Assembly: GCA_002683135.1 (NCBI GenBank)
Contig: NYSS01000182.1
Span: 14,005 to 78,004, forward strand
Length of the DNA stretch: 64,000 nucleotides
Source of the DNA: Planctomycetota bacterium
GTDB taxonomy: Bacteria; Planctomycetota; GCA-002687715
Reading direction: 5' to 3'
The notes beneath the pieces were generated by a model that had not been told where the DNA came from, did not search any database, and worked only from the letters and a program-made list of their open reading frames with translations. A program made the translations under genes and the position numbers. This document shows positions 6,887-62,281 of the stretch, piece by piece. Within the stretch, counting starts at the first letter, position 1. Each line of letters begins with the position of its first letter.

Positions 6887-6920
6887 GACGCGCCTCGGTC
6901 ATCAGGGGCAGGTTTTTATC
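6887..6920 (+). promoter_or_regulatory. PK leader only (intercistronic)
   Basis: GAC 6887-6889; S2 GCCTC 6892-6896/GGGGC 6905-6909. No promoter hexamers. 11 nt to ATG 6921. Confidence 0.7.
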
Positions 6921-7397
6921 ATGCAATCTAGTGCAATCATAATAAAGCCAATGACGGAAACAGAGAACCTGTTAGCCAACCTTTCGTTAGTAATAGAGCT
7001 CAACCAAAAAGTGAGCATGAGTGATTTAAACTTCACTGCTGTTTTCATTAAAAATGGTGATAGATTTTATCCGTTGGCAATAGACCCTAATACGTTGTCA
7101 TCAAGAAAAATAAAAGGAGGCCGTTATCAATTCCTCTGCAAGTTTTCTTACCAAATGGATGAAGTAAGAAGCTTCTTTCAAATCTTCTTTAGTGGGAATT
7201 TCCACTTTGTTCTAGATTCATCAATCTTAAACAGTATTGATTCAACAGCCTACATCAACATTGTTGGTTATGAACATAACACCAAAGTAGATGAGGCTTT
7301 AGGTGATATATACCTTACACTGGACGATACTAGCGAATACATGTCTCTAAATTCACTTGAACATCACGTAAACGTGGTGAACGACAAAACCCTTTAA
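6921..7397 (+). CDS. hypothetical protein (158 aa)
   Basis: Start moved from track 6885 (inside the leader) to ATG 6921. Confidence 0.65.
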   Translation: MQSSAIIIKPMTETENLLANLSLVIELNQKVSMSDLNFTAVFIKNGDRFYPLAIDPNTLSSRKIKGGRYQFLCKFSYQMDEVRSFFQIFFSGNFHFVLDSSILNSIDSTAYINIVGYEHNTKVDEALGDIYLTLDDTSEYMSLNSLEHHVNVVNDKTL

Positions 7398-7414
7398 TAT
7401 CGGAGAACGACATT

Positions 7415-8170
7415 GTGAAGTTTATTACAGTCTTATTTACTCTGCTGGTGGCATCAAACACCACGCTTGCTCAAGATACTTGGCGTGGATTGATTATTGC
7501 TCCTGAAAATCGCTGTTCGCCTTATGATAAAAAATCTCAATACCCTTACCCACAGTCAGTAGAGGATATTGTTGTTGCCAATATGGGTGGAATTGTATAT
7601 GGTCCATACACTGGAAGAATATTCGAAAATGACAGAAAAACCGATATAGAACATATACTTAGTACAAGTGAAGGGCACGATAGCGGCTTGTGTGCAGCAT
7701 CACCTGAAGTAAGAAAACAGTTCGCTATCGATCCGCTTAATCTTACATTGGCGGCACCCGAAGTTAACCGTTGCAATCCTGGCGGCAAATGCGGGTTTGA
7801 TGCCGCAGAATGGATGCCTGAGAAAAACCAGTGCTGGTTCTCTAACCGTATTGTTGAAATTCGACAAAAATACAAATTAACAATTGATATTAATGAAGCT
7901 CGGACGCTGGAAAATACTTTAAGAAATTGCGAGAGCTTTGAAATGATAATGTTTGAAGGCAGACCAGTTCAGGGTGATTTAAATGCGATATCAAACGTGC
8001 AGGTGCCAAATATTTCGCTAAAAAGTGCATTAACGCTTTATGATGATAATGGAAATGGAAAGATCACTTGTAAAGAAGCACGAGCCCACGGCATCGCGCC
8101 GGTCACCCAAGACCACCCTGCCTATCAGTATATGTACGATCCAGATAAAGACGGCGTTGTCTGCGAATAG
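7415..8170 (+). CDS. secreted DUF1524/His-Me-finger-type nuclease with C-terminal Excalibur Ca-binding domain
   Basis: N-terminal signal peptide MKFITVLFTLLVASNTTLAQ; TDIEHILS...DPLNLTLAAPEVN...WMP motifs; C-terminal DDNGNGKITCKE...DPDKDGVVCE. GTG start. Confidence 0.6.
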   Translation: MKFITVLFTLLVASNTTLAQDTWRGLIIAPENRCSPYDKKSQYPYPQSVEDIVVANMGGIVYGPYTGRIFENDRKTDIEHILSTSEGHDSGLCAASPEVRKQFAIDPLNLTLAAPEVNRCNPGGKCGFDAAEWMPEKNQCWFSNRIVEIRQKYKLTIDINEARTLENTLRNCESFEMIMFEGRPVQGDLNAISNVQVPNISLKSALTLYDDNGNGKITCKEARAHGIAPVTQDHPAYQYMYDPDKDGVVCE

Positions 8171-8201
8171 AAATTATTGATAAATTATCGCTGGCACTAG
8201 G

Positions 8202-9506
8202 TTAGTTGAACTGGTGCCTTGCGACTTCATCGTATTCATAACCATCCATTTCCAAGTCAAATCCGATAGTGACATTCTCAGGAACATTCTGCGTGTATTC
8301 AATATTGAAGTAATCACTATTCTCCTGTGACTCAATTATTTTTGAAGCAACCTTTATGCTCATCTCAGTTACACTATCATCATCCATTTCAGCGAGAAGC
8401 TCAGGTTCAGCAATTAATTGCTCAACAATTTCTGCAGAAGCGGTTGCAAAAAGATAAGGAGACTTCAACGAATTGACGCCTTGCGCCAACCTACTTACTG
8501 TATTTTCGTCAACACCACCGTCCAATATTGATTTTGTAAACTGGGCTATTTGTGGATCTTGAATATTACCTAACAGGGCCTCATCATTTTTCTCTACAGC
8601 ACTGTACATTGCACCCATATCTTTAAAGAGATCTTGTTGACTGTCCGTATAAAAATCTAATGAGCTGACATATGAATTATATACATCGGTGTAGTTCTGA
8701 AGCTCAGACAACATACCATCTTCGATGATCTGCTTAGATGACTCAAAAAAACCCACTGCTTCAGCTTTCGTTTCGATAAACGCGTTATCCATCAGATTTG
8801 CATCGTGTGCAATGTAATCCGTACTGTGAAAAAGTTCGTGCTGAATGATGTTGTATAGCATCGCACCGGTTGTGTATTCATTTAGCTTACCGCTATCCGC
8901 TTCATCCTCTAGGCCGTTAAACAAAGACATCATTCCAGTTTTACTAATTACTGCAATTGGGACCGTATCCTGTTTGCTTTCATCCTGAAGAACAAAAGCG
9001 GCTAAACCTTCCCCCGATTTAAGCGCAGAGTGTTGCTCAGCAAGACTTTCAATATAATCCGCATTATCCTGGCCATTGAAGAATTTTTCATTTTCCAGCT
9101 TATTTACGTCATCGAGAGATTGAACAACTAACACTTTGTTTCCATTTTCATCGATACAAAGGCAGTTTTCATTGAAAAGATCACCCAAGAGGACTGATTC
9201 ACCGGTCTCAAAATCATGATAGCCAGTTTCTTTTTCTAACCAGCTTGCACTTGGGCCTATGTCCGACGATGAGTAACCTTTTAACTCATCCGCGAGTAGA
9301 TTGTAATTTGTTTGAGAGAGTTTAGTTAAATTTGGCGTGTCGAGTTCTGATGTTAAATCATCAATTGCTACCTGAGAATCGACCACTTCGAATTCTATTG
9401 ATTGGAAACCACCAGCGTCAGCACTGTCTATAATTGCGACTTCCTGCGCAAATGCCGTACTGGAAAGAAGGGCCGTAGTAAGTAAAACGTTATTAATTAT
9501 CTTCAT
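8202..9506 (-). CDS. secreted acidic protein with HExxH motif (putative zinc metalloprotease)
   Basis: Signal peptide ending AFAQE; IIQHELFHSTD. Confidence 0.5.
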   Translation of the reverse strand: MKIINNVLLTTALLSSTAFAQEVAIIDSADAGGFQSIEFEVVDSQVAIDDLTSELDTPNLTKLSQTNYNLLADELKGYSSSDIGPSASWLEKETGYHDFETGESVLLGDLFNENCLCIDENGNKVLVVQSLDDVNKLENEKFFNGQDNADYIESLAEQHSALKSGEGLAAFVLQDESKQDTVPIAVISKTGMMSLFNGLEDEADSGKLNEYTTGAMLYNIIQHELFHSTDYIAHDANLMDNAFIETKAEAVGFFESSKQIIEDGMLSELQNYTDVYNSYVSSLDFYTDSQQDLFKDMGAMYSAVEKNDEALLGNIQDPQIAQFTKSILDGGVDENTVSRLAQGVNSLKSPYLFATASAEIVEQLIAEPELLAEMDDDSVTEMSIKVASKIIESQENSDYFNIEYTQNVPENVTIGFDLEMDGYEYDEVARHQFN

Positions 9507-9531
9507 GATCGGCCCTTAATGAATTGATTAT

Positions 9532-9771
9532 TTAAGTGAACAACCCTCTATTAAGGAATTTCCCTTTGAGCAATTCTTCACCATGTTTAATGACAATTTC
9601 GCAAACTTTTTGGTCGGCTAACTTTTTCGAAATAGCCTTATTAGTTAGCTTGAACTTTTCAGAAAATAAGATGAAAGCCTTATTTTTCATTACAACAAGG
9701 ATCTCATCACCAGTAACATCATAAAAAAGTTCTGAGTTCGACTGAAAGTTGAACTCATTCACTTCAAGCAT
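9532..9771 (-). CDS. hypothetical protein (79 aa)
   Basis: The track ORF (to 9891) runs through promoter-like AT-rich DNA containing the TGCATAA/TTATGCA dyad. Internal ATG 9771 with AGAGGA upstream is preferred. Confidence 0.35.
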   Translation of the reverse strand: MLEVNEFNFQSNSELFYDVTGDEILVVMKNKAFILFSEKFKLTNKAISKKLADQKVCEIVIKHGEELLKGKFLNRGLFT

Positions 9772-9918
9772 GAGAAAGATTAATCCTCTTTCTTCTTTAT
9801 ACTTCACATTTTTTATGGTGTGACTTTCTAGTCGTTTCTTGTCCAAATCTATCTCCTTAAATATTATGCATAAATAATAGCACTTATGCAAAAATAAAGT
9901 GACGCGGCTTCTCTTATG

Positions 9919-11666: not shown

Positions 11667-11749
11667 TGTATTTTCCTACCCCTGACTGGACCGAGGTGCA
11701 TCGATATAAAACTATATTACTACTTTTTATTTGTGCGCACAAATTTAAT
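11667..11749 (-). promoter_or_regulatory. class-A promoter/operator + PK leader (minus strand)
   Basis: GTGCGCAC 11733-11740; ATATTA 11714-11719 (= -10 TAATAT). S2 GAGGT 11693-11697/ACCCC 11678-11682. Weak -35. Confidence 0.7.
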
Positions 11750-12473: not shown

Positions 12474-13637
12474 ATGATGAAAAAAACTCTTCTTGCAACA
12501 AGCATTCTGGCAGCAACACTCTTAGCGCCAATTACCGCCAGCGCAGATATCCGCATTAATGGCTTCGCAAACTTTGTTGCCGGGGCCACAACGAATGATG
12601 ATGAATCATTCAACAACTACACTGGCGATATCGATTACTCAAATGACAGTCTCTTCGCGCTTCAGGTTTCTAGCGACATCAACAGTAGAATGACCGCGAC
12701 GGCTCAAATTCTTGCGCGTGGTAATAATGACTATAATGCTGAACTTGAGTGGGCTTATATCAGTTACGCCGGTGACAACGATATGACCTATACCGCTGGT
12801 CGTTTTCGCATGCCATTGTTTGCTTACTCTGCATCACTTGACGTTGGTTATTCATACCACTGGTTAACAGCGCCGCAGTTGGTCTATGATGTCCCGTACC
12901 GAAACATGGATGGCCTCAAAATTAACAAAGCATTTTCAGGCTTAGGTTTCGATTACAATCTTGCCCTTTCTCACGGAAACGTATCTGGTGAAGCATTAGG
13001 CACGGAGGTTACGGTTGATCAAACAACGCTTCTATCTCTTGAGGCTACTAACTTTGAATGGACCGCTCGCGCCGTTTATGGGTTTGGTGATGTAACATTA
13101 GATCTGAACAACACAGATCCGCTTTTGCAGCAACTCTCTGACTTTAACCAAGCGGTGAATGCTTATGGTTTTGCCGAACTTGGTTCCAACATTTTAGTAG
13201 AAGACGATCAAGGTACATTCGTTGGAGCTAGCCTTTTTTATGACAACAGTAAATTCTTTGCCGGTGCCGAATTTACTGTTACGGATCTTGAAAACAGTTT
13301 TACTAGTAAAGATACTGCGTACTACTTAACAGGCGGTTATCGCTTCGGTAAGTGGACCACGGCTTTAACTTATGAAAACTTCGAAAGTGAAGGTGATGTT
13401 AACTACTTAGATGACATCAATGAATTGGCAGCGATTGATGATTTTTCTCAACAACTTGCTTTGTTTGCAGCAGGGGTTCAGGCCGGGCAAATTTCTGAGA
13501 CCGAATCAATTACTGCGACGGTTCGCTACGAAGCAGCTCGCAGCACAGCCATAACGCTAGAATCTAACCACGTTAACGATAAATTGACAGACGATACAGC
13601 GACTCTTGTAAGACTTGGCGTAAGTTACGTCTTTTAG
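12474..13637 (+). CDS. outer-membrane porin
   Basis: Signal peptide ending ITASA; alternating beta-strand pattern; C-terminal ...GVSYVF. Confidence 0.65.
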   Translation: MMKKTLLATSILAATLLAPITASADIRINGFANFVAGATTNDDESFNNYTGDIDYSNDSLFALQVSSDINSRMTATAQILARGNNDYNAELEWAYISYAGDNDMTYTAGRFRMPLFAYSASLDVGYSYHWLTAPQLVYDVPYRNMDGLKINKAFSGLGFDYNLALSHGNVSGEALGTEVTVDQTTLLSLEATNFEWTARAVYGFGDVTLDLNNTDPLLQQLSDFNQAVNAYGFAELGSNILVEDDQGTFVGASLFYDNSKFFAGAEFTVTDLENSFTSKDTAYYLTGGYRFGKWTTALTYENFESEGDVNYLDDINELAAIDDFSQQLALFAAGVQAGQISETESITATVRYEAARSTAITLESNHVNDKLTDDTATLVRLGVSYVF

Positions 13638-13693: not shown

Positions 13694-14142
13694 ATTTAAA
13701 ATCACCAAAACGGTGAAACATTTTTATCGATATCCGTGCTACGCACCTCTATCATTTAAAATCACCTAATGCGGTGACTCACTTAGCATGATTAAAGTCT
13801 CTCAAATGTGATTTCTTCTAAATCACCTATGCGGTGACTCACTTTATCGGTATCTTTCACGCTTATTTTTGCAACTTCTAAATCACCTATACGGTGACTC
13901 ACTTAGCATGATTAAAGTCTCTCAAATGTGATTCCTTCTAAATCACCTATGCGGTGAATCACGTGTGCTTTACTTCAGTTAATGAAGGCATGCACTTCTA
14001 AATCACCTATGCGGTGAATCACACGCTTTAGCGTTGAAAGCGTTATCTTTAATTCTTTTAAATCACCTATGCGGTGACTCACGTATTACAATAACTCGCG
14101 ACGCAACGCCGATTCTTCTAAATCACCTATGCGGTGACTCAC
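13694..14142 (-). CRISPR. CRISPR array: 8 repeats (6 canonical 28-nt, 2 degenerate distal) and 7 spacers (six of 32 nt, distal one 33 nt)
   Basis: Canonical repeats end at 13842, 13902, 13962, 14022, 14082 and 14142 (60-nt period). Minus-strand repeat GTGAGTCACCGCATAGGTGATTTAGAAG has type I-F-like architecture. Degenerate repeats 13694-13720 and 13754-13782 lie distal to the AT-rich leader. Confidence 0.95.
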
Positions 14143-14238
14143 TGAAACAAGTTCTCTTATTTTTTAATTAAAATAAAGGGTTAAATAAAAATACGCTAAA
14201 AATCATTATTTTTAACGAAAAAAATAAGTCATTGTTTT
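14143..14238 (-). promoter_or_regulatory. CRISPR leader (AT-rich)
   Basis: 96-nt A/T-rich segment between the csf3 stop and the first canonical repeat. Repeat degeneracy increases away from it. Confidence 0.5.
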
Positions 14239-14940
14239 TTATATTAAATTTACTGGCATATAACAAAGGGTTTTTGTGCCAATATCCCAATAGGGAGGCC
14301 TCAGTGGAGATGATACTGATATATCTCCTTTTTCTTCAAAAGGTTTTACCCGTTTTTTCCACAATTCATTAGCTTCACTACAAACTTCAATCTCAACCTG
14401 CTTGATGAAGCCAAATCCCATACGATGAAGTTTTCCCAAATGAGTAAGGTGCCCGGACGATAAAGCTTCTTCTATAAGCGCTTTGTCACCAATACAATAT
14501 GCTTCCATCTTATCAACATAGGTAATGTTGTGATATACAAGCGCATTACGTTGATGACCGCGGTTAAAATCTAATTGACCAGCATGACTCATCTTCTCTA
14601 ACGAAGCTGCTTGACGCTTTAATTGGATCTGATTGTTCTTCACTGCTGATGCGATAGACGCCTTATCATGCCTGTTTGTATAAAAACGTGATGAATGCGT
14701 TAAATCTCCAACTGGCTGCAGCGCAGAGGCTTTATATATCCAACCTTCGCCGTCACCGTGACGTTCAAATGGTAAATCATCGGCAAGTGCCAGCAGAGCT
14801 TTTCGTGAGTGCGGCTCTTCTAATGTAATCAACCCTTTTTGCGTGTTGATATAAGCGATTAACGCATCCAAATGCAGCGGGTATTTAGGCAGACAAATTG
14901 CGCTACCTAACTCAAATGTAATCTTAAGCGGTTCCATCAT
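14239..14940 (-). CDS. csf3: type IV Cas5-family protein Csf3
   Basis: 233 aa; N-terminal KITFEL...PLHLDALIAYI; last gene before the array, in csf order. Confidence 0.7.
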   Translation of the reverse strand: MMEPLKITFELGSAICLPKYPLHLDALIAYINTQKGLITLEEPHSRKALLALADDLPFERHGDGEGWIYKASALQPVGDLTHSSRFYTNRHDKASIASAVKNNQIQLKRQAASLEKMSHAGQLDFNRGHQRNALVYHNITYVDKMEAYCIGDKALIEEALSSGHLTHLGKLHRMGFGFIKQVEIEVCSEANELWKKRVKPFEEKGDISVSSPLRPPYWDIGTKTLCYMPVNLI

Positions 14941-14943
14941 TGG

Positions 14944-16059
14944 CTACCCTTTTAATTTATCTTTACCACGCTTGATGGCAACTTCACGTGGTGTAAAGTA
15001 ATCAATCATTTCTTCTTTATCGATAGCCTGAATAGCTTCATGCGCTTCGGCAGTCAATGAAGAAAGTGATGTGTAATCAAATGAGAAGTGTTCACCCTGG
15101 TATAGCTCATCAACAATAGTCTCACTAATGTCCAATGCCGGTAAGTCAGCATGAATTGCACTGATTTTGAAGCGACCAAATCCAGTTCGGCCCCAGCCAC
15201 CCAGATAATTAACGTTCGCCAAGTCTTCAAGCGCAACTAATAGAGCGCCAACTTGTGCTTCTGTTAAATCAGGAGAGACATCAATTCTAAAGTGCATATC
15301 AACGCCTGCACAGATTGATTCAACACCCAGTATGTTGCCTAACGTTAGTTTTTTTGCAACATCTTCACCTTTACTCTTCTGGGTTTTACGTTCTTGCTGG
15401 TTCTTCGACACTCCTTCAAGGTAATCTGCAATCGCGCTTTCACCACCCTCTACATTTTGTGTAACATCAACGATGTTATTACCACGAGAAATATCGTCTA
15501 CTTTGATAAAACTACGACGCTCAACGATTTGATAAGGCTGAAGCTGTTTTACATCACCGTCGATTCCAAAGTTTTGCTTCTCTATGATCTCTTGTACTAA
15601 TGCAAGTGGTGCCTGTACTACACCATTTTCCACTGTTGAATTCAGGATCGGATGAATATCACTTACTGCATATCGTGATTCCAACATGCGAGACCCACCA
15701 CCGAATACGCCCATATAAATATGCTCAGATGCGCGTACTAATTCCTCAATCGAAGAGTTAGCCTTGTCTGGTTGCGTATGTGATGACCCAGATTGCAAAG
15801 CAATATGCGTTTCAAGTGATAATTGACCTTGCGTGCTGACCATTGCATCTATTGCTCGCTTTGCAATGTAACGACGGAAACGACCTCGTAAACCATTGGC
15901 CGGGAAGTAAGGAACATTGTTGCCATTAATTCGTTTCTTTACCGTCAATGTTGTGTTGTTCTCATCAGCACCATCTGGGTACGCCACATTCCAATTGCTG
16001 GTGGTTTTCAGGATCACATGAATTGCGTTATTTTGTACGTGGAATTTAGTCATAGTCAT
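14944..16059 (-). CDS. csf2: type IV Cas7-family protein Csf2
   Basis: 371 aa RAMP protein; PANGLRGRFRR and GVFGGGSRM motifs. Confidence 0.8.
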   Translation of the reverse strand: MTMTKFHVQNNAIHVILKTTSNWNVAYPDGADENNTTLTVKKRINGNNVPYFPANGLRGRFRRYIAKRAIDAMVSTQGQLSLETHIALQSGSSHTQPDKANSSIEELVRASEHIYMGVFGGGSRMLESRYAVSDIHPILNSTVENGVVQAPLALVQEIIEKQNFGIDGDVKQLQPYQIVERRSFIKVDDISRGNNIVDVTQNVEGGESAIADYLEGVSKNQQERKTQKSKGEDVAKKLTLGNILGVESICAGVDMHFRIDVSPDLTEAQVGALLVALEDLANVNYLGGWGRTGFGRFKISAIHADLPALDISETIVDELYQGEHFSFDYTSLSSLTAEAHEAIQAIDKEEMIDYFTPREVAIKRGKDKLKG

Positions 16060-16065
16060 TTCCGC

Positions 16066-16839
16066 TTATTTAATATTTGCTGTTCTAACAGGTTCAGGCA
16101 GCTCTAAATTCTCAGTTAGAACGAAATCAAGTGCGTAGGCTTCGCTGCTCGTGAGAGATAAGAGTTGTTTAACATGCGCTTGCATTTCAGGCATGAGTTC
16201 TACGACCTCATTAACCCATTGATAAAGTTCGCTTTGACCAACACGCTGACCTTTCATGTCACAAAATGACAAAGCAGTACGCATTGGTTTCCTTTTAATA
16301 GCTTTTTTGGCGTGCAAAGCTTTGTGCGCTTCAATCAGAGATATAGTTGCTTCAAGACCATCTTGAATTTTCTGTGTTCTAATTTTATGGACATCTTCGC
16401 CGAGTCTAAAGAACACAACATCTTTCGAATAGTTAACGGGTGATCGCCAGGCTACATGCTGAGATTTCGATACTTGAAGATAAAACGTAAAAGGTGGCTC
16501 TGGTGGATTTAAAAACCAGTATCCCCGGTGCACGCGCTTTAAGCATGGATAGAGTCCATCTGCAGTAACGACAGCGCTACCCCATCTAAAGATGAATTCT
16601 TTCTCATCCATGATGGCTGCACAGTGTAGGCAACGATAAGGTGCATGCGGATCAAAAATGACATTTTCGACGGTGAAGGATTTCGTTAGCATCAAAAAAT
16701 CAACCATATCGCCTTCATCATGGGGTTTACCACAAATACCGCAGTGTCCAGTTGTTTCAGCTTCAACACCTTGAGGAAGGGAATCTGCTAAGCCTGCGCC
16801 TTTAATAACGAGTTCTGAGGGATATATTAAATCGGGCAT
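16066..16839 (-). CDS. csf1: type IV Cas8-like protein Csf1 (zinc-finger)
   Basis: 257 aa; HCGICG...CLHCA CxxC pairs; position between cas6 and csf2. Confidence 0.7.
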   Translation of the reverse strand: MPDLIYPSELVIKGAGLADSLPQGVEAETTGHCGICGKPHDEGDMVDFLMLTKSFTVENVIFDPHAPYRCLHCAAIMDEKEFIFRWGSAVVTADGLYPCLKRVHRGYWFLNPPEPPFTFYLQVSKSQHVAWRSPVNYSKDVVFFRLGEDVHKIRTQKIQDGLEATISLIEAHKALHAKKAIKRKPMRTALSFCDMKGQRVGQSELYQWVNEVVELMPEMQAHVKQLLSLTSSEAYALDFVLTENLELPEPVRTANIK

Positions 16840-17531
16840 TGGGTGTGCTTCCCTTTATTAACGAAATAAACAAGGCCATAGCCTCGTGACTGCAAGTGGC
16901 CAGCTTGCCAAATACCTTCAAGTCTTACTTGCATAGCAAATGTTGCTCTTACTTTTGCTACCGCTTTTTGCCCACCGTTTCTAAATTTTACTGATTCACC
17001 GGAACGACGTGATTCCAAGACCATAATATTGAGATCATCATCCGTGAAAGGTGAATCAATAACACCTTTATCAAATGCATCTTCGAACATAGCTATTACA
17101 TGACGCTTCACTAGATCTGCAGCGGATTCAACGACACCGGTTTCAGATTCCCTGCGCTTATCCCGCTGATCAATAAGTCCGGTAAGTCGATAGACATTCG
17201 GCTCATCTGTTAATACAGCTCGCTTATCTTTCTCACCTACACGCGTATCAGGGCTAAAGCCTTTTCCCATGAGAAAACTAATTGCCGGTGCGACAACTTG
17301 AGTTGTCATCAACGGATCGTTATCACTGACAAAGCCAACCCAACCAAGCCCACCAATAAATCGGTTTTCAGGCCGATTACAATTAGTCTTCGTTTCAGTG
17401 AGATAGTTAAACAAACCCGGTTTGCTTTGAAACATCTGCCCATCCAACCCTTTTGCTACTGCCTCACGCATTTCATTAGCATGGATGTATGTACCAGCCG
17501 GGAGGGTGAACTTTACGAATGTCTGTTGCAT
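16827..17531 (-). CDS. cas6: Cas6-family crRNA endoribonuclease (Csf5/Cas6)
   Basis: 234 aa; C-terminal glycine-rich GHLQSRGYGLV loop; first gene of the csf operon. Confidence 0.6.
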   Translation of the reverse strand: MQQTFVKFTLPAGTYIHANEMREAVAKGLDGQMFQSKPGLFNYLTETKTNCNRPENRFIGGLGWVGFVSDNDPLMTTQVVAPAISFLMGKGFSPDTRVGEKDKRAVLTDEPNVYRLTGLIDQRDKRRESETGVVESAADLVKRHVIAMFEDAFDKGVIDSPFTDDDLNIMVLESRRSGESVKFRNGGQKAVAKVRATFAMQVRLEGIWQAGHLQSRGYGLVYFVNKGKHTQCPI

Positions 17532-17608
17532 GTTGCTTGACCATAATTGAAGATTAATCTAAGGTTATTCTCATGAATTTATAAAGTCAACTCCATAGGA
17601 ATGAACTT

Positions 17609-20104: not shown

Positions 20105-20139
20105 TGTTTGCATTTACTAGCAACTAAAATAAATACAAC

Positions 20140-20221
20140 TTGCATTGTGTGCGCACATAATATAATATAAACACATAGCAACGACGCACCTCGGTCACCA
20201 TTCAGGGGTAGGATAATAAAA
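20140..20221 (+). promoter_or_regulatory. class-A promoter/operator + PK leader
   Basis: TTGCAT 20140-20145, GTGCGCAC 20149-20156, TAATAT 20163-20168. S2 ACCTC 20188-20192/GGGGT 20205-20209. Confidence 0.8.
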
Positions 20222-22012: not shown

Positions 22013-22032
22013 TTAAAAACTTAAAATAAAAC

Positions 22033-22115
22033 TTGAATTTCGTGCGCACATAAAATAATATAAGTAAATACCAACGACGCACCTCGGTCATTCATTCAGG
22101 GGTAGGATAATAATC
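22033..22115 (+). promoter_or_regulatory. class-A promoter/operator + PK leader
   Basis: TTGAAT 22033-22038, GTGCGCAC 22042-22049, TAATAT 22056-22061. S2 ACCTC 22081-22085/GGGGT 22099-22103. Confidence 0.8.
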
Positions 22116-22532
22116 ATGCAAAACTTCATCGATTTTCTTAAAGAAGAAATAGACACTTCAACTAAAGCACTTAACAGCTACTACGACCAAGTAGCAAAAT
22201 ACTCTCAAAAAGCGCAAGACGCGCACGCTGACAGAGATAATACGAAAGTGCGCATTAGTGTGGTTAATCACCTTAACAAAGCCGTTGAGAAAGTTGAGTA
22301 CGAAGAAGCATCGCTTCATATCTACACGATGACGCTTAAAAACCTTGAGAAGCACATCGAAGAGGGCACAGAAGACAATTTCGTTGGAACGTTGCTTACG
22401 TCGCTTTCAAGAGAAATAGGCGAGAACAACTTCGGTAACAGCAAGCTATCTCAAAAAGATAAAGCGTATGCGAATGCCAATTTCTATATGTTCAAGAAAA
22501 TCATCCCCTTCGTAGGCTATGCGGGGAACTAA
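22116..22532 (+). CDS. hypothetical protein (138 aa)
   Basis: Track ORF after an A-module; first of a 6-gene same-strand run. Confidence 0.7.
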   Translation: MQNFIDFLKEEIDTSTKALNSYYDQVAKYSQKAQDAHADRDNTKVRISVVNHLNKAVEKVEYEEASLHIYTMTLKNLEKHIEEGTEDNFVGTLLTSLSREIGENNFGNSKLSQKDKAYANANFYMFKKIIPFVGYAGN

Positions 22533-22534
22533 TC

Positions 22535-22903
22535 ATGAGCCAAGCAGATTTCGATACGTTAATGAACAAGCTACATGCACGCCTAGATAAGCGTGTACGT
22601 GAAGAACAAACGCTACATTGGGCAAAGCATCACGCAACGCTATCAAAGGTAGCTAGCATCGTGAACGACGAAACCGATGCTCCACTTACTGACGTTATTA
22701 ACGGCATCAAGACAGCATGGAAAAAAGCGTTCGATGAAATACATGTGCGCCATCCAATGAACGGGTGGGAGGTAACCGCTTCCTTTTGTAAAGAAGCAAA
22801 GTCTTTCATAAGCGCTTATTACACACACTCAACTGAAATGGTGGTTATGTCCAAGCGACTTGAAGCCCTTTTCCAAGCCGAAGTAATCGCGGCTACAGCG
22901 TAG
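22535..22903 (+). CDS. hypothetical protein (122 aa)
   Basis: Track ORF, 2-nt gap to the previous gene. Confidence 0.6.
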   Translation: MSQADFDTLMNKLHARLDKRVREEQTLHWAKHHATLSKVASIVNDETDAPLTDVINGIKTAWKKAFDEIHVRHPMNGWEVTASFCKEAKSFISAYYTHSTEMVVMSKRLEALFQAEVIAATA

Positions 22904-22936
22904 CCACGATTACAAGAATGAATTAGGTCAAAGCAG

Positions 22937-23221
22937 ATGAAAAACTTCGTAATTATGGTAGCCATCAGCACCACAATTCAAGAAAACGATAGAGATGCGG
23001 CTGTCATTGCACTAAGTGACTCTATCAATATTGACGGCAATGCATACCTATATGACGTCGATATCTACGATATAAAAGGACAAGGCGATTTCATTGGCAA
23101 GGTAACCCTTACAAGTACGGATTCTGATATTGAAAGCTTTTCAATCAACAATCTAATTAGCTTTGAACATCACGAAATAATTAACGCAAAAATTGAACAA
23201 ATCGCCCCAGCATATAGCTAA
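22937..23221 (+). CDS. hypothetical protein (94 aa)
   Basis: Track ORF in the operon. Confidence 0.55.
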   Translation: MKNFVIMVAISTTIQENDRDAAVIALSDSINIDGNAYLYDVDIYDIKGQGDFIGKVTLTSTDSDIESFSINNLISFEHHEIINAKIEQIAPAYS

Positions 23222-23249
23222 GTGAATATCATCAACGAGGTTTACTCAA

Positions 23250-24503: not shown

Positions 24504-24504
24504 T

Positions 24505-25895: not shown

Positions 25896-25971
25896 TTGAA
25901 ATGTGTGCGCACATATACTAAAGTAAACACATCAACGACGCACCTCGGTCATTCAGGGGTAGGAAGAAAAC
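25896..25971 (+). promoter_or_regulatory. class-A promoter/operator + PK leader
   Basis: TTGAAA 25896-25901, GTGCGCAC 25905-25912, TAAAGT 25919-25924. S2 ACCTC 25942-25946/GGGGT 25956-25960. Confidence 0.75.
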
Positions 25972-28704: not shown

Positions 28705-28782
28705 CTTGCTTTTGTGCGCACACTTTTTTATTATAAATAACAGTTACGACGCACCTCGGTCTTTCAGGGGTAGGACAACCAC
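28705..28782 (+). promoter_or_regulatory. class-A promoter/operator + PK leader
   Basis: CTTGCT 28705-28710, GTGCGCAC 28714-28721. S2 ACCTC 28753-28757/GGGGT 28767-28771. Confidence 0.75.
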
Positions 28783-29054: not shown

Positions 29055-29090
29055 GACGCTCCTCGGTCTCTCAGGGGTAGGAAGTAAACC
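29055..29090 (+). promoter_or_regulatory. PK leader only (intercistronic)
   Basis: GAC 29055-29057; S2 TCCTC 29060-29064/GGGGT 29074-29078 (U/U at the closing position). 12 nt to the ATG. Confidence 0.65.
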
Positions 29091-29492: not shown

Positions 29493-29539
29493 TTAATAAC
29501 TAAGGCAGAACCGTTATGTACTCTAACCATATTAGACAA

Positions 29540-29572
29540 GATGCGTTGGTCTACAGGGGCAGGATAACACCA
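29540..29572 (+). promoter_or_regulatory. degenerate PK leader
   Basis: GATGCGTTGGTCTACAGGGGCAGGA: S1 (GAU:GUC), S2b and AGGA are kept, S2a is eroded. 12 nt to ATG 29573. Confidence 0.4.
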
Positions 29573-31568: not shown

Positions 31569-31645
31569 TTGATTTCTGTGCGCACATATTATAGTATATT
31601 CATCAGTTACGACGCACCCCGGTCAATCAGGGGTAGGAGATTATT
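31569..31645 (+). promoter_or_regulatory. class-A promoter/operator + PK leader
   Basis: TTGATT 31569-31574, GTGCGCAC 31578-31585, TAGTAT 31592-31597. S2 ACCCC 31616-31620/GGGGT 31630-31634 (U-to-C turns the wobble into a Watson-Crick pair). Confidence 0.8.
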
Positions 31646-32441: not shown

Positions 32442-32520
32442 TTGATATCTGTGCGCACATAATTTAATATAAACACATCAACGACGCACCTCGGTCTAGT
32501 TCAGGGGTAGGAAAATAACC
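32442..32520 (+). promoter_or_regulatory. class-A promoter/operator + PK leader
   Basis: TTGATA 32442-32447, GTGCGCAC 32451-32458, TAATAT 32465-32470. S2 ACCTC 32488-32492/GGGGT 32504-32508. Confidence 0.8.
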
Positions 32521-38229: not shown

Positions 38230-38309
38230 GTTGGTTTCCAACCCCTGAACTAGACCGAGGTGCGTCTTTAGATGTAATTTATATTAATTTGTGTGCGCAC
38301 ATAAGTCAA
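38230..38309 (-). promoter_or_regulatory. class-A promoter/operator + PK leader (minus strand)
   Basis: AGTCAA 38304-38309 (= -35 TTGACT), GTGCGCAC 38293-38300, ATATTA 38281-38286. S2 GAGGT 38257-38261/ACCCC 38241-38245. Confidence 0.8.
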
Positions 38310-40233: not shown

Positions 40234-40311
40234 GGCATGTGTCCTACCCCTGAAATGACCGAGGTGCGTCGTTGATGTGAATATTATAATTTATGTGCGC
40301 ACATAAATCAA
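40234..40311 (-). promoter_or_regulatory. class-A promoter/operator + PK leader (minus strand)
   Basis: AATCAA 40306-40311 (= TTGATT), GTGCGCAC 40295-40302. S2 GAGGT 40261-40265/ACCCC 40246-40250. Confidence 0.8.
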
Positions 40312-42047: not shown

Positions 42048-42124
42048 GATAAATTCCTACCCCTGACTAAGCCGAGGTGCGCCGTGTTAATGATAATAAT
42101 AATTTCCGTGCGCACATAAGTCAA
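42048..42124 (-). promoter_or_regulatory. class-A promoter/operator + PK leader (minus strand)
   Basis: AGTCAA 42119-42124, GTGCGCAC 42108-42115. PK S1 42081-42083/42070-42072 (GGC:GCU); S2 GAGGT 42074-42078/ACCCC 42059-42063. Confidence 0.8.
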
Positions 42125-46159: not shown

Positions 46160-46198
46160 CGTTTTTCCTGCCCCAGACAGTCGAGGCGCACTATATTA
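46160..46198 (-). promoter_or_regulatory. PK leader only (minus strand)
   Basis: PK S1 46190-46192/46179-46181 (AGU:ACU); S2 GAGGC 46183-46187/GCCCC 46170-46174. ATATTA 46193-46198 may be a -10. Confidence 0.65.
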
Positions 46199-46371: not shown

Positions 46372-46450
46372 AATTAACTCCAACCCCTGAATGGTGACCG
46401 AGGTGCATCGTTGATGTGCTTATAATAATTTACGTGCGCACGAAAAGCAA
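46372..46450 (-). promoter_or_regulatory. class-A promoter/operator + PK leader (minus strand)
   Basis: AAGCAA 46445-46450 (= TTGCTT), GTGCGCAC 46434-46441. S2 GAGGT 46400-46404/ACCCC 46383-46387. Confidence 0.8.
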
Positions 46451-48703: not shown

Positions 48704-48786
48704 ATGTTTTATCCAACCCCTGATAGTGTGACCGAGGTGCGTCGTAGGTATGTACTAACATTATTATTTGTGCGCACAAATATCAA
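48704..48786 (-). promoter_or_regulatory. class-A promoter/operator + PK leader (minus strand)
   Basis: TATCAA 48781-48786 (= TTGATA), GTGCGCAC 48770-48777. S2 GAGGT 48734-48738/ACCCC 48716-48720. Confidence 0.8.
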
Positions 48787-49752: not shown

Positions 49753-49852
49753 GAAAATATCCAACCCCTGAAAATGGTCGAGGTGCACCGTGTTTGTTTA
49801 TTCGTTGTATCCAACTTAATAGTAATTATACATACCTATTAGATATGGTCAA
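49753..49852 (-). promoter_or_regulatory. class-B promoter + PK leader (minus strand)
   Basis: Minus-strand reading: TTGACC-N16 (ATATCTAATAGGTATG)-TATAAT (plus 49847-49852, 49831-49846, 49825-49830). PK S1 49787-49789/49776-49778 (GGU:ACC); S2 GAGGT 49780-49784/ACCCC 49764-49768. Confidence 0.7.
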
Positions 49853-49970
49853 GGATTTTAATAATAGTTTTTGTGTTTCTTAAAAAGTATCACATATGCA
49901 TAAGATAACAGTTGCATTTCCCTATTTTCACTTTTACTGTAACACTCACATTCACATTGTGAGTATAAAA

Positions 49971-51637: not shown

Positions 51638-51717
51638 TTGACAACTGTGCGCACGGAATATATTATCTTTAAAAGACTTTGATGCACCTCGGTCACCACT
51701 CAGGGGTAGGAAAAACC
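51638..51717 (+). promoter_or_regulatory. class-A promoter/operator + PK leader
   Basis: TTGACA 51638-51643, GTGCGCAC 51647-51654, TATTAT 51661-51666. S2 ACCTC 51686-51690/GGGGT 51703-51707. Confidence 0.8.
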
Positions 51718-52336: not shown

Positions 52337-52373
52337 GATGCGCCTCGATCACTTCTCAGGGGCAGGAATAAAG
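52337..52373 (+). promoter_or_regulatory. PK leader only
   Basis: PK S1 GAT 52337-52339/ATC 52348-52350; S2 GCCTC 52342-52346/GGGGC 52359-52363. 10 nt to ATG 52374. Confidence 0.65.
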
Positions 52374-55969: not shown

Positions 55970-56436
55970 GTACTAACCATCCTCTTATTAATGGTGAAAA
56001 CTATCCGCTTTAGCTACACATTGAATTGCGCCTAAATCAGTGATGATTCTATCCACCATATAGCGATTGATGTTCCTGAACGCGATGTTCAAATCGCATT
56101 GAGTTTTGCACAAATAATATCATTAATGCATACTTTGTATCGTTATTTTCGACTAATTATGTAATACCAACAAATCAAAACAATACGTACCGGTTCATTT
56201 CTTCTGGGCCTTCTTACATATCCCACCAGCTCATTCAATCAATAATTGCCTTTCAATACGCCGGTATTAAAACGCAAAAACGCTTATATATTTCAAATCG
56301 AGATGAGTATGGCGATTTTACGATGAAAGGTTTAACCGTAGCGCCGCTCACTTTGGTTACCTGGCTAAAATTATAATGTCTGCAGTACAAGACCACGTTA
56401 ATCGCATTGCTGGTGGTGAGAAAATACGATTCCACC

Positions 56437-56517
56437 TTTACTTTTGTGCGCACGAATAATATAATGAACACATCTCAAGACGCGCCTCGGTCACCATTCA
56501 GGGGTTGGAAATTAGTT
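56437..56517 (+). promoter_or_regulatory. class-A promoter/operator + PK leader
   Basis: TTTACT 56437-56442, GTGCGCAC 56446-56453, TATAAT 56460-56465. S2 GCCTC 56484-56488/GGGGT 56501-56505. Confidence 0.8.
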
Positions 56518-57207: not shown

Positions 57208-57288
57208 TTGATATTTGTGCGCACGAATAATATGATAAATACATCTCAAGACGCACCTCGGTCATACCATCAGGGGTTGGAATTAACC
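57208..57288 (+). promoter_or_regulatory. class-A promoter/operator + PK leader
   Basis: TTGATA 57208-57213, GTGCGCAC 57217-57224, TATGAT 57231-57236. S2 ACCTC 57255-57259/GGGGT 57273-57277. Confidence 0.8.
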
Positions 57289-57685: not shown

Positions 57686-57720
57686 GACGCGCCTCGGTCT
57701 TTCTGGGGCAGGATAACGAT
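57686..57720 (+). promoter_or_regulatory. PK leader only (intercistronic)
   Basis: GAC 57686-57688; S2 GCCTC 57691-57695/GGGGC 57705-57709. 11 nt to the ATG. Confidence 0.7.
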
Positions 57721-59721: not shown

Positions 59722-59827
59722 AAAAACACTATAATTTAAATATACTCTCTTAAAACACCTTATTCAAGAGATTGGGATGCTCATCGCCTTTGTTTTGATA
59801 GTCTTTGCTAATAAAATGAAATAAACC

Positions 59828-59908
59828 TTTACTTTTGTGCGCACATAAAATAATATAAACACATAGCAAAGACGCACCTCGGTCACCATTCAGGGGTAGG
59901 AAAAAACA
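59828..59908 (+). promoter_or_regulatory. class-A promoter/operator + PK leader
   Basis: TTTACT 59828-59833, GTGCGCAC 59837-59844, TAATAT 59851-59856. S2 ACCTC 59876-59880/GGGGT 59893-59897. Confidence 0.8.
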
Positions 59909-60286
59909 ATGTCAAATAAACTAAATACCACGCAAAAAATCGCTTCTGATGTAGTTTCTACGTTTATCGCTCGTGCCGATGAGTCATCAGACGTCAATCA
60001 GCTTGCTTTCGATAGCATCATCAAAGAAACCCTTACCACAGTTGGTTTTGGTCAATGCTTTGAACAATTGCTTGTAAGAAAGAATTTTCAATTGAAAGCT
60101 ATCCTAGATGTGTTTTCTAAAGCATCTAGGGAATGCGTCTTTGATACCTATGCCGACAATGACGACGCTATCGAGCAATCAGTAGATATCAGCCTAACTG
60201 ATACAGTCATGGGCATTGCACTGTCACGCTCTCGATTGATGCAGCGATTAATTATCGAAGCCGAAGACACTGCGCTGAATCTCTAA
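59909..60286 (+). CDS. hypothetical protein (125 aa)
   Basis: Track ORF after an A-module. Confidence 0.7.
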   Translation: MSNKLNTTQKIASDVVSTFIARADESSDVNQLAFDSIIKETLTTVGFGQCFEQLLVRKNFQLKAILDVFSKASRECVFDTYADNDDAIEQSVDISLTDTVMGIALSRSRLMQRLIIEAEDTALNL

Positions 60287-60326
60287 GACAGCACTATTGG
60301 AAGGGATACACCCTTATTGATTTGAA

Positions 60327-60361
60327 GACGCGCCTCGGTCATTCAGGGGCTGGTAAATACA
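60327..60361 (+). promoter_or_regulatory. PK leader only (intercistronic)
   Basis: GAC 60327-60329; S2 GCCTC 60332-60336/GGGGC 60346-60350. Preceded by hairpin AAGGG-ataca-CCCTT at 60301-60315. Confidence 0.7.
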
Positions 60362-60658
60362 ATGAAAAATGCAACTACGGCAGCAAAGCTACCTCGAATT
60401 AATGTTACTCACTTTATTGCTGGTGGTATTTCAGAAATCTTTGAATCAGAAGTGCTAGTCGATAACGAAGACCGTTTAGAAGTAGTAACAACGCAATCAA
60501 GTATTCTTTCTGAGCAGAATAAACAAATCATTTCTGACTATGTTCGCAGCTGCCAGGGAGAGGACGAGGACACCAACGAAGAGCTGGCAGAATTTTTTAA
60601 CGGGCTAGACAAAGACTGCAGCATTCCTACGCTTTTTTATTGGGATTCAGAAGCGTAA
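60362..60658 (+). CDS. acidic hypothetical protein (98 aa)
   Basis: Track ORF after a PK leader. Confidence 0.7.
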   Translation: MKNATTAAKLPRINVTHFIAGGISEIFESEVLVDNEDRLEVVTTQSSILSEQNKQIISDYVRSCQGEDEDTNEELAEFFNGLDKDCSIPTLFYWDSEA

Positions 60659-60689: not shown

Positions 60690-60947
60690 ATGACGCTAGA
60701 ACATTTATCAGCAATGCCACCTGAACAGGTAATGCAGTGGATTAAGGCTCATAAAGGAAGCTTTACGTTAGTACCAAATGTACCGAGTCATGAATTTTTG
60801 AGTACCTTTATTTTGCATATGCCTGCAGCAATGGATCAAACGACAGCTGATGCAGTGGCTAAACAATACTGCGAATATCATGAAGAAGTTATAGAGTCCA
60901 CTAAACAGCACTTTTCATGTGTTGATGAATCTATTGAGTCTAATTAA
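60690..60947 (+). CDS. hypothetical protein (85 aa)
   Basis: Track ORF with AAGGAA RBS. Confidence 0.55.
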   Translation: MTLEHLSAMPPEQVMQWIKAHKGSFTLVPNVPSHEFLSTFILHMPAAMDQTTADAVAKQYCEYHEEVIESTKQHFSCVDESIESN

Positions 60948-60973
60948 TAAATAACACTTACTTAGGGAGCCTT

Positions 60974-61192
60974 ATGAATAAAAGTACAAAAGCGGCCTTG
61001 CTAGTATATGCCACACCATTTTTGGCTATTTTCGGCTTAGAACTGCTCATGTTTTTTTATGTAAAGCCTATGGTACTGGAAAAAGTGCCTTCTGCTGGCA
61101 ATTTATGGCAGTTCCATGTTCTCGGTATAGCTATCATAATTGGTCTTTGGTATCCCATTAGAAAGTGGATATATAAAGATTTGATGAAATAA
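60974..61192 (+). CDS. small membrane protein (72 aa)
   Basis: Two hydrophobic segments; GGGAG RBS. Confidence 0.55.
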   Translation: MNKSTKAALLVYATPFLAIFGLELLMFFYVKPMVLEKVPSAGNLWQFHVLGIAIIIGLWYPIRKWIYKDLMK

Positions 61193-61220
61193 CAATATTA
61201 AGCCGACAGGAGAATGTTCT

Positions 61221-61424
61221 ATGGCTAACAAAATCAGACCTTTTGGCATTTACAACATTAATCCTGCGAGTATTTCGCCTTCAGGGTATGATGTTGCGGA
61301 TTGCCAAGATCTGCTTCCAAAAGGAGAGCGGATCAGAAACAAGAAGTTAAAGCGCCGTAGACATAATAAAATGGCGCGTGTTGCAGCTAAGCAGGCTTTA
61401 TATAAAGAACTGATAGTGGCTTAA
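61221..61424 (+). CDS. small basic protein (67 aa)
   Basis: KKLKRRRHNKMARVAAK; AGGAG RBS. Confidence 0.5.
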   Translation: MANKIRPFGIYNINPASISPSGYDVADCQDLLPKGERIRNKKLKRRRHNKMARVAAKQALYKELIVA

Positions 61425-61444
61425 CTCTTAGTGAGGAATTCAAA

Positions 61445-61603
61445 ATGATTAAAGAATTATTGGAAATAATTGAGGCACAGCGAGAGTATATTGACGCCTT
61501 GCCTGAATCAGTGGTTTCGACGTTACCAGTTATGCCCGGTCACGATAGAGATTGGGCTGACGAGGTAATTTATGCTGCTAAGAAGTCCTTGGACGACAAA
61601 TAA
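61445..61603 (+). CDS. small protein (52 aa), absent from ORF track; paralog of C-terminus of 39267..39635
   Basis: ATG 61445 with GAGGA RBS; about 70 percent identical by eye to residues 72-121 of the 122-aa protein. Confidence 0.6.
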   Translation: MIKELLEIIEAQREYIDALPESVVSTLPVMPGHDRDWADEVIYAAKKSLDDK

Positions 61604-61736
61604 CCGGTCATTAATCAGTATATCATTCGGGTATAAAAATACGGCAACCTTCACAATAGGTTTTACTTTAGTTCCATAGATATCGTGAACTAGTGATAAA
61701 AATTACGAAAAAAGTGGTGAAAGAGATAAATAAATG

Positions 61737-61818
61737 TTGATTTCTGTGCGCACACACAGTAATATAAACACATAGCAAAGACGCACCTCGGTCACCATTC
61801 AGGGGTAGGACATTAACC
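61737..61818 (+). promoter_or_regulatory. class-A promoter/operator + PK leader
   Basis: TTGATT 61737-61742, GTGCGCAC 61746-61753, TAATAT 61760-61765. S2 ACCTC 61785-61789/GGGGT 61802-61806. Confidence 0.8.
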
Positions 61819-62232
61819 ATGAATATTCAGTCATCGAATACACAGAACTTCGACCTTCGTAACTACTACCTTTTCATTAAAATTGCCCAGGATGACTTTA
61901 ACGGCGAACTTAACCTATCTCACGTTGAGCTGAAAAACGGCAACACCAGCCAGCCGTTAGAAATTAATTCGGTAATAGGCATGAAGTATGACGCTAATCA
62001 GTACACGTTGATCTGCAAATTTGATGATGAACATGCAGACTATTGTGATTCACCCGAAGCATTACGTCGTATCTTTGAAGCAATCCATTCTTCTACAAGC
62101 GATGCCTACATTGATTTGACTGCTGATGTTGATTCACTCGATGTAGACGCTACATTAAATAACATCATTGAAATTCAATTATATTCAGACTCTGACCTCA
62201 AGTTTTCAAAATCAGTCGCAATCGTCCATTAA
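61819..62232 (+). CDS. hypothetical protein (137 aa)
   Basis: Track ORF after an A-module. Confidence 0.7.
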   Translation: MNIQSSNTQNFDLRNYYLFIKIAQDDFNGELNLSHVELKNGNTSQPLEINSVIGMKYDANQYTLICKFDDEHADYCDSPEALRRIFEAIHSSTSDAYIDLTADVDSLDVDATLNNIIEIQLYSDSDLKFSKSVAIVH

Positions 62233-62244
62233 TTTGTAATCATT

Positions 62245-62281
62245 GACGCGCCTCGGTCTTTCAGGGGCAGGATAAACCAAC
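62245..62281 (+). promoter_or_regulatory. PK leader only (intercistronic)
   Basis: GAC 62245-62247; S2 GCCTC 62250-62254/GGGGC 62264-62268. 13 nt to the ATG. Confidence 0.7.

Follow-up and report, generated by a model that had tools for sequence, protein, structure and literature searches.

Closing-pair alleles of a repeated pseudoknot leader track distance from the promoter in a family of Alteromonas megaplasmids

Small H-type pseudoknots beside a ribosome-binding site (RBS) are familiar from the preQ1-I riboswitch, the T4 gene 32 mRNA pseudoknot and the rpsO/S15 operator. Structured elements also separate the cistrons of the polycistronic early transcript of phage T7, where RNase III sites of ~20-bp imperfect duplex undergo demonstrated cleavage, and synthetic insulators of the 5′ untranslated region (UTR), such as RiboJ and bicistronic designs, are engineered to act through self-cleavage or translational coupling. 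Here, a natural leader of 26–31 nt (~35 nt counting its Shine-Dalgarno (SD) sequence) is described from a 64,000-nucleotide stretch of DNA (the window; assembly GCA_002683135.1, contig NYSS01000182.1, positions 14,005 to 78,004), in which it folds into a predicted pseudoknot and precedes dozens of unrelated genes. Two cassette systems of mobile elements come closest to it in layout. In the leading region of the IncN plasmids pKM101/R46, CUP elements place ArdK operators before ard genes (Delver and Belogurov 1997, cited in PMC6289460). In T4-type phages, PeSL (promoter-early stem-loop) cassettes recombine with one another and thereby shuffle small genes (PMC2839356, PMC4122927).

Like the CUP elements, as far as the citing source portrays them, this locus repeats a cassette of promoter and single-repressor operator before establishment and anti-restriction genes, with ArdK as the repressor there and a putative GTGCGCAC-binding protein here; 21 such modules, termed class A, are present in the window. 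The comparison is one of layout rather than of sequence, and the host, the plasmid type (with a Dot/Icm-type type IV secretion system here) and the operator are different. PeSL cassettes share with the present ones a short repeated sigma-70 promoter and a stem-loop before small orphan genes in hyperplastic regions, as well as recombination between copies. However, the PeSL stem-loop is a terminator, whereas the leader structure lies 3′ of the promoter, within the 5′ UTR, where it abuts the SD and also occurs without a promoter. To our knowledge, neither a conserved RNA pseudoknot nor alleles that depend on context have been described for CUP elements. The leader cassettes are thus set apart from both systems by a conserved 5′ UTR pseudoknot, by promoter-less copies and by a second allelic state. 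With the preQ1-I, gene 32 and rpsO knots the leader has in common a 30–40-nt H-type fold beside the RBS and invariant loop nucleotides, but its SD lies outside the knot, it is not tied to one autoregulated or pathway gene and it has no Rfam match.

A typical copy reads GAC-GC-ACCUC-G-GUC-(4–9 nt)-GGGGU-AGGA. Its first stem (S1) consists of three nucleotides, for example GAC, paired to GUC within the hairpin loop of the second stem (S2), a five-pair helix of RCCUC with GGGGY; GC forms loop L1 and the 4–9 nt form loop L3. The SD, (A/U)GGA, directly abuts the 3′ end of S2, and the start codon follows 7–10 nt further on. Pairing was tested on 60 distinct sequences from the window and two sister plasmids introduced below. 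With the 3′ strand of S1 placed inside the S2 loop, 99% of cells are paired, 0/500 shuffles reach the observed score and slid controls are at most 61% paired. All three S1 pairs vary on both sides (GAC:GUC, AGC:GCU, GGU:ACC, AGU:ACU, UGU:GCA, GAU:AUC). Four of the S2 pairs hardly vary (C:G, C:G, U·G, C:G), and only the outermost pair, which adjoins the SD, varies and covaries (A:U in 38 of the 60 sequences, G:C in 16 and G·U in 4). Because G·U pairs occur and the position relative to the SD is fixed, the structure is taken to form in the mRNA. In a class-A-type leader from a metagenome (1655–1690), the 3′ strand of S2 reads GAGGU, by which the invariant U·G becomes U:A.

Regular-expression scans and a covariance model run over the whole window with filters off agree on 31 intact leaders and one degenerate copy (Table 1). 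The census is considered complete because the 31 copies score 31–53 bits and everything else at most 11 bits, the degenerate copy at 29536–29565 scoring 8.5 bits. All copies face the following open reading frame (ORF). A T-run follows one of the 31 (6892–6909), and the G:C S2 hairpin at this site was flagged together with AGGTTTTTAT as terminator-like. Scanning the window against Rfam 15 returned no match, and a search of 59800–60400 at E values up to 10 returned solely unrelated eukaryotic families, none on a leader. A full-text search of the literature by leader sequence recovered unrelated primers only.

Judged from nucleotide identity, the window is a stretch of an Alteromonas megaplasmid, a 39% GC replicon: positions 14000–34000 are 98% identical to plasmid pKD01 of Alteromonas macleodii and, over 55% of the query, 93.5% identical to the A. 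mediterranea RG65 plasmid MRG65-300. Among PLSDB plasmids, the class-A module matches these two only. In this module, the promoter TTGACA-N17-TAATAT carries GTGCGCAC in its spacer, and it precedes methylases, the type IV-A CRISPR system and small orphan genes. It is conserved as a unit from the −35 element through the SD, and its −10 element ends 12–14 nt before S1, which would place the RNA 5′ end ~5–8 nt from the knot. A second sigma-70 promoter class, TTGACC-16-TATAAT with a TACCTAATAGGTA-like palindrome in the spacer (322–350 on the plus strand and 49852–49825 on the minus strand, with a further case outside the window at about 12500–12560, minus strand), lies 35–45 nt upstream of its leaders, which close with A:U at 3/3 loci.

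The state of the closing pair is strongly associated with the distance from such a promoter. In the window, seven of the eight promoter-distal leaders close with G:C and the eighth (29055) has a U·U mismatch, whereas the 23 promoter-adjacent leaders comprise 21 A:U, 2 G·U and no G:C (Fisher p = 3.0e-6). A preliminary description of this DNA had stated that GGGGC is absent from all 21 class-A leaders, which is exact (19 are ACCUC:GGGGU and two, at 6242 and 56479, are GCCUC:GGGGU). Of the eight leaders that it had counted as promoter-less, the six G:C copies stand. The A:U copies at 395 and 49789 are not promoter-less but adjoin other sigma-70-like promoters. Its remarks that the copy near 1917, far downstream of a class-B promoter, is G:C, and that the degenerate copy near 29540 keeps GGGGC, are both borne out; the former lies ~110 nt downstream of TTGACT-16-TATGAT, comes after a divergent gene and is not intercistronic, and the latter has an intact G:C leader as its ortholog in MRG65-300. 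Short loops, also ascribed to the G:C form, are present in six of the seven G:C copies (L3 of 4–5 nt), with 52337 (8 nt) departing from the pattern; overall, L3 is shorter in G:C copies (median of 5 versus 6 nt, Mann–Whitney p = 2.7e-4). In an identical loop, the S2 hairpin gains ~−1.7 kcal/mol by the swap to G:C (−5.9 as against −4.2 kcal/mol), and the mean S2 free energy is −6.35 kcal/mol in G:C copies against −4.41 kcal/mol. Two pairs of leaders (28748/62245 and 25937/60327) have the same S1 and L3 and differ over S1–S2 in the closing pair alone.

The same split is found in the sister plasmids. From ~142 kb of pKD01 (beyond position 194,396), 300 kb of the 302-kb MRG65-300 and the window, 109 leader copies were grouped by downstream gene into 48 loci. 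G:C closes 10 of the 11 promoter-less loci, the other being U·U, and 1 of the 37 promoter-linked loci (Fisher p = 1.8e-8), and the association is retained after collapse to distinct S1/L3 haplotypes (p = 1.7e-10) or by L3 alone (p = 7.8e-9). Most promoter-linked loci are A:U; two are fixed as G·U, three are polymorphic between plasmids for A:U and G·U, one is an A·C chimera in pKD01 and one, at dndB, is G:C in both sister plasmids. Numbering the two bases of the closing pair 10 and 32, position 10 in the promoter-linked loci thus flips between A and G at three and is fixed as G at two, and position 32 is U in 36/37. Within this plasmid family, the association between G:C closure and a promoter-distal location is real and strong.

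The trait common to the G:C copies is their distance from the 5′ end and not a cistron number. Genuinely internal leaders all stand at cistron 2, right behind a class-A-led cistron, with the degenerate copy at cistron 3, and later cistrons are leaderless, as are the four ORFs from 60690 to 61603. A leader is present for only about one quarter to one third of the genes in this sector, and most internal cistrons have none. The earlier proposal that G:C marks internal cistrons therefore holds as a strong association, but not as a mark of every such cistron, and it is further qualified by the G:C class-A leader at dndB and by relatives whose allele also goes with base composition and with lineage. 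Within MRG65-300, a single sector of ~100 kb (~61–164 kb) contains all leaders and GTGCGCAC promoters, and neither was found in the plasmid's transfer and backbone regions.

Evidence on transcripts comes from marine metatranscriptomes (21 RNA runs; 24 runs of any kind), analyzed as assembled Logan contigs rather than reads. These contigs are unbroken across the G:C leaders at 57686, 60327 and 62245, and at the class-A module at 59871 their depth rises from ~0.5 to ~57–74. Co-transcription across the three copies is supported by this continuity, which in assembled contigs is also compatible with partial processing. Contig breaks at 59872 and 61781 were considered as transcript ends and rejected as assembly artifacts at the repeated class-A 31-mer. 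A differential RNA sequencing study of A. macleodii Te101 reports that plasmid pTE101 is syntenic with pAMDE1-300 (PMC5864184); no transcription start site data on these leaders were found in that paper.

Two natural recombinants reveal how leaders are exchanged. At the pKD01 locus 1913 (window 1912), a class-A promoter and the 5′ half GAUGC-ACCUCGGUC are joined to the 3′ half UAUCA-GGGGC-AGGA. The 5′ part is the class-A leader of another MRG65-300 locus, the 3′ part is the G:C leader found at this same locus in the window and in MRG65-300, and a crossover within CCTCGGTC has left an A·C mismatch. Read from these junctions, the pKD01 deletion arose through leader-by-leader recombination. At 29055, the leader itself is where homology to MRG65-300 sets in; upstream of it the window has coding sequence and MRG65-300 a sigma-70 promoter, and the closing pair is U·U in the former and A:U in the latter. 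From these two cases, leaders act as recombination joints, much as in PeSL cassettes, in which position 10 moves together with the DNA before it and position 32 together with the gene.

A specific pattern scan located the same knot in other mobile elements of 36% to 69% GC, behind wholly different promoter and operator modules. The downstream genes are usually small orphans near methylase, ArdC or ParB-like genes, and the −10 element of these unrelated modules ends 11–17 nt before S1. In prophage-like contigs of 66–69% GC, with tail genes and a methylase, all leaders are G:C, and at 66–67% GC each gene has its own terminator, TTGACG-ATACGCGGAAACCGCGTAT-TAGAAT promoter and leader. A:U is therefore not required beside a promoter, in keeping with a drift of the allele along with base composition. 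The Vibrio alginolyticus plasmid NZ_CP110672.1 (49% GC, conjugative-type; 31671–39672) has A:U in 12/12 leaders whatever lies upstream, related metagenome contigs of 49% GC (ArdC, N6-methylase gene) have A:U and G·U copies, contigs of 40% GC have G·U copies and contigs of 36% GC have A:U copies. On these comparisons, the default closing pair varies with the GC content and the lineage of the replicon, and it is the G:C internal copies of AT-rich replicons that stand out. The Tara contig CEUP01047106.1 (~42% GC, with GTGCGCAC promoters) is an independent relative with the same allele split: its promoter-adjacent leaders are three A:U and one G:C, and its sole intercistronic leader, which starts 8 nt past the end of the upstream ORF, is G:C with an L3 of 4 nt. 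A loose-pattern scan of genome contigs gave single chance matches only, and two further leader-pattern scans of viral contigs gave no match. In the lineages of 36–49% GC, a conserved hairpin CAGGGTGGGCTTCGGCCTGGTACCTG precedes most leaders; its outer stem covaries (CAGG:CCTG versus CAGA:TCTG), and it is followed by a short GC-rich palindrome, TGCGCAttcGCGCA, GTGCaaacGCAC or GGTGtatattgCACC. This hairpin and palindrome may form a structure at the RNA 5′ end, serve as an operator or signal processing. A sigma-54 reading of the CTGGTAC...GC module in the Vibrio-type lineages was rejected, as the GG-N10-GC spacing, compared by eye, fits one lineage only.

To account for the split, we tentatively favor, at a little short of an even chance, the reading in which the stability of the pseudoknot is adjusted to where it lies in the transcript, and we infer selection for stability as the cause. 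Class-A copies, 5–8 nt from the 5′ end, and second-class copies within ~45 nt of it would fold first, with little competing upstream RNA. They could thus tolerate weak closure and, at 39% GC, would settle on A:U, with changes to G·U being neutral. Indeed, the promoter-linked loci look neutral between two weak states of nearly equal energy (−4.2 and −4.5 kcal/mol), with mutation biased toward AT. Where a translated cistron or a long 5′ UTR precedes the leader, it would instead have to fold against upstream RNA and after the passage of ribosomes, and selection would keep it at the stronger state, with G:C and a shorter L3. The analogy behind this reading is with RiboJ and bicistronic designs, in which a standard structured part before the RBS lessens dependence on upstream sequence. 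Selection is favored because promoter-distal G:C persists despite divergence of S1 and L3, unrelated flanks, exchange between copies and an excess of A:U donors. A:U copies outnumber G:C copies more than threefold, so unselected leader-by-leader exchange should erode the G:C class. Moreover, the G:C copies are not co-duplicated units, since their S1 differs (GAC:GUC, GAU:AUC, AGU:ACU, GGU:GCC) and their flanking genes are mutually unrelated, except for a weak similarity between the cistron-1 protein of 61819–62232 and the cistron-2 protein of 6921–7397 (27% identity over 124 residues, E = 9e-7). The suggestion in the preliminary description that stability requirements may differ fits the ~−1.7 kcal/mol, the independently shorter L3, the A:U/G·U toggling and the unrelated flanks.

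Several observations weigh against tuning by selection. The class-A leader at dndB is G:C, and the U·U pair at 29055 indicates that cistron 2 can retain a leader whose closing pair is weak or broken. The 12/12 A:U leaders of the V. alginolyticus plasmid include some without the usual upstream module, so that on these sequences the rule is not shown to be general. The copies are also not fully independent, because class-A modules are homologous over ~95 nt and partly homogenized; an identical 31-mer recurs at 20183, 59871 and 61780. Finally, a partition-function test of S2 with in silico allele swaps in short and long contexts gave noisy results, under a model without pseudoknots. An extension of the SD:anti-SD helix by position 32 was considered separately and rejected, since by the known anti-SD sequence the 16S 3′ tail offers no pairing partner to U or to C, whichever the register.

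Historical descent, with recombination carrying the alleles along and no functional difference between them, is on the unlikely side but remains a serious rival to stability tuning, because class-A modules are homologous as whole units and linkage to the flanks is seen in both recombinants. Under this explanation, position 10 would come down with whatever sequence stands upstream, position 32 with the downstream gene, the class-A module would have spread as an A:U unit, and the leader-only copies would descend from a G:C lineage. The conservation of the module from −35 to SD with a fixed −10 distance fits such a history, as do recombinant junctions in or at the edge of the leader and an allele that tracks GC content across lineages (G:C at 66–69%, A:U or G·U at 36–49%). 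Against it, a single recent origin of G:C is unlikely given the diverged S1 and L3 and the unrelated flanking genes, and the leader-only copies are no more homologous to one another than to the far commoner A:U copies. Neutral exchange or AT-biased mutation would, in addition, predict internal G·U or A:U copies, and there are 0 in 11 loci and 27 copies. The second, unrelated promoter class, too, is A:U at all of its loci.

A bolder interpretation, which we regard as improbable, extends beyond the plasmids. It would see in the leader a pseudoknot, not described before and common in mobile elements from the plasmids of Alteromonas and Vibrio to prophage-like contigs of high GC, that needs proximity to a 5′ end or a dedicated factor, and in the G:C copies a distinct "restart" subclass in operons. 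These copies would, for example, be sites where the RNA is cut and protected, with the release of monocistronic mRNAs that each begin with a leader, or sites that a leader-binding regulator reads in another way. The narrower form of this interpretation, raised in the preliminary description and neither supported nor contradicted by the assembled contigs, in which the G:C leaders are RNA processing sites cut upstream so that the stronger helix protects a monophosphorylated 5′ end, is less probable again. In every lineage with a recognizable promoter the leader lies near the predicted 5′ end, which suggests that 5′ proximity matters, and the flanks upstream of internal copies are AU-rich. However, the assembled RNA contigs run unbroken across the three G:C leaders covered, no common motif was found upstream of the G:C copies, and leader 1912 is G:C though there is no upstream cistron to separate. 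In contrast to the T7 sites, which resemble the leaders as conserved structured elements between the cistrons of a mobile element's early transcript, a 5-bp helix with a 3-bp knot falls short of the ~20-bp stem and is hence no RNase III substrate. Processing of the leader by Csf5/Cas6 was also considered and rejected, the CRISPR repeat hairpin TCACC...GGTGA being unrelated to the leader.

A constraint at the level of DNA has still less to commend it and is judged highly unlikely. Here, G:C would be the RNA optimum everywhere, and class-A promoters would keep the A at position 10 as part of an auxiliary repressor site ~36 bp downstream, GACGCAC resembling an operator half-site of GTGCGCAC. In the sequence, CGCAC of the A allele does match five contiguous operator bases, and in the 66% GC lineage, whose operator is ATACGCGG...CCGCGTAT, GACGCG of the G allele likewise matches five. 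Yet position 10 is the polymorphic one (A/G at five loci) and position 32 is conserved as U, the opposite of what this constraint predicts, and the other promoter class, with a different operator, is A:U as well. Least probable of all is that the leader-only copies have promoters of their own, which would abolish the contrast between internal and 5′-proximal leaders: the consensus scans cover sigma-70-type sites only, and terminator-like hairpins upstream of two G:C copies (46230–46214 and 60301–60315) would require transcription to re-initiate, but no site of at least 9/12 with a −10 element 5–40 nt upstream was found for leader-only copies in the three plasmids, scattered 8/12 matches excepted, S1 can begin as little as 9–19 nt after the upstream stop codon, and the RNA contigs continue across three of the copies.

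The annotation shows a megaplasmid with Dot/Icm-type transfer genes, a type IV-A CRISPR-Cas system, numerous DNA methyltransferases and a long series of small hypothetical genes, and a search for tRNA genes in the window found none. PLSDB types pKD01 and MRG65-300 as non-mobilizable, despite the Dot/Icm-type genes of both. The CRISPR repeat array in the type IV-A locus has a 60-bp period with I-F-like repeats. A group II intron reverse transcriptase/maturase (ltrA; 38330–39601 of the piece examined) is encoded in pKD01. A palindrome, TTGCATA-N13-TATGCAA, has seven copies in the window, mainly in divergent intergenic regions; it probably serves a further plasmid regulator as its operator and may be what had been called class B.

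Table 1. Leader copies and other features of the window (coordinates from the first nucleotide of the 64,000; closing pair, outermost pair of S2; class A, behind a class-A promoter)
Feature	Coordinates	Strand	Closing pair	L3 (nt)	Context and remarks
Leader	395..422	+	A:U	6	S1 GGC:GUC; 45 nt 3′ of non-class-A sigma-70-like promoter 322-350 (10/12)
Leader	1912..1938	+	G:C	5	Promoter-distal; promoter at 1776-1803
Leader	2262..2289	+	A:U		Class A; S1 AGC:GCU, compensated
Leader	3147..3174	+	A:U		Class A
Leader	6091..6117	-	A:U		Class A (21st copy); S1 UGU:GCA
Leader	6242..6268	+	G·U		Class A; G·U in three of three plasmids
Leader	6887..6912	+	G:C	4	Before cistron 2; 9 nt past stop of ORF 6278-6877
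Leader	11675..11702	-	A:U		Class A; GTG start
Leader	20183..20212	+	A:U		Class A
Leader	22076..22106	+	A:U		Class A
Leader	25937..25963	+	A:U		Class A; S1 and L3 identical to G:C copy 60327
Leader	28748..28774	+	A:U		Class A; S1 and L3 identical to G:C copy 62245
Leader	29055..29081	+	U·U mismatch		Cistron 2; without promoter
Degenerate leader	29536..29565	+			Cistron 3; S2 5′ strand lost, GGGGC kept
Leader	31611..31637	+	A:U		Class A; S2 ACCCC (C:G in place of U·G)
Leader	32483..32511	+	A:U		Class A; G·U in MRG65-300 (polymorphic)
Leader	38238..38266	-	A:U		Class A
Leader	40243..40270	-	A:U		Class A
Leader	42056..42083	-	A:U		Class A; S1 GGC:GCU
Leader	46167..46192	-	G:C	4	Cistron 2; S1 AGU:ACU; terminator-like hairpin 46230-46214 immediately upstream
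Leader	46380..46409	-	A:U		Class A
Leader	48713..48743	-	A:U		Class A
Leader	49761..49789	-	A:U		S1 GGU:ACC; 35 nt 3′ of TTGACC-16-TATAAT 49852-49825 (11/12)
Leader	51681..51710	+	A:U		Class A
Leader	52337..52366	+	G:C	8	Cistron 2; S1 GAU:AUC; long-loop exception
Leader	56479..56508	+	G·U		Class A; A:U in MRG65-300 (polymorphic)
Leader	57250..57280	+	A:U		Class A; G·U in MRG65-300 (polymorphic)
Leader	57686..57712	+	G:C	5	Before cistron 2; 19 nt past stop of ORF ending 57666
Leader	59871..59900	+	A:U		Class A
Leader	60327..60353	+	G:C	5	Cistron 2; weak terminator-like hairpin 60301-60315
Leader	61780..61809	+	A:U		Class A
Leader	62245..62271	+	G:C	5	Before cistron 2; 12 nt past stop of ORF ending 62232
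Type IV-A CRISPR-Cas	13769-14142 and 14239-20104				csf5-csf1-csf2-csf3 on minus strand; csf4/DinG divergent
TTGCATA-N13-TATGCAA	1688-1714, 9866-9892, 25853-25879, 35922-35948, 37347-37373, 49876-49902, 56106-56132				Palindrome

Even if the split is merely historical, it provides a clean case of compensatory change and of recombination-made mismatches within an RNA element. The cassettes give a handle on a leader family without an Rfam match that stands before establishment and anti-defence-type genes in mobile elements of differing GC, and whose copies also serve as recombination joints that shuffle gene cassettes. If the closing pair is indeed tuned to transcript position, one 35-nt element would offer a natural allelic series of A:U, G·U and G:C, together with A·C and U·U recombinants, and with it a system in which to measure how much RNA stability an RBS module needs at a 5′ end as compared with the inside of an operon.

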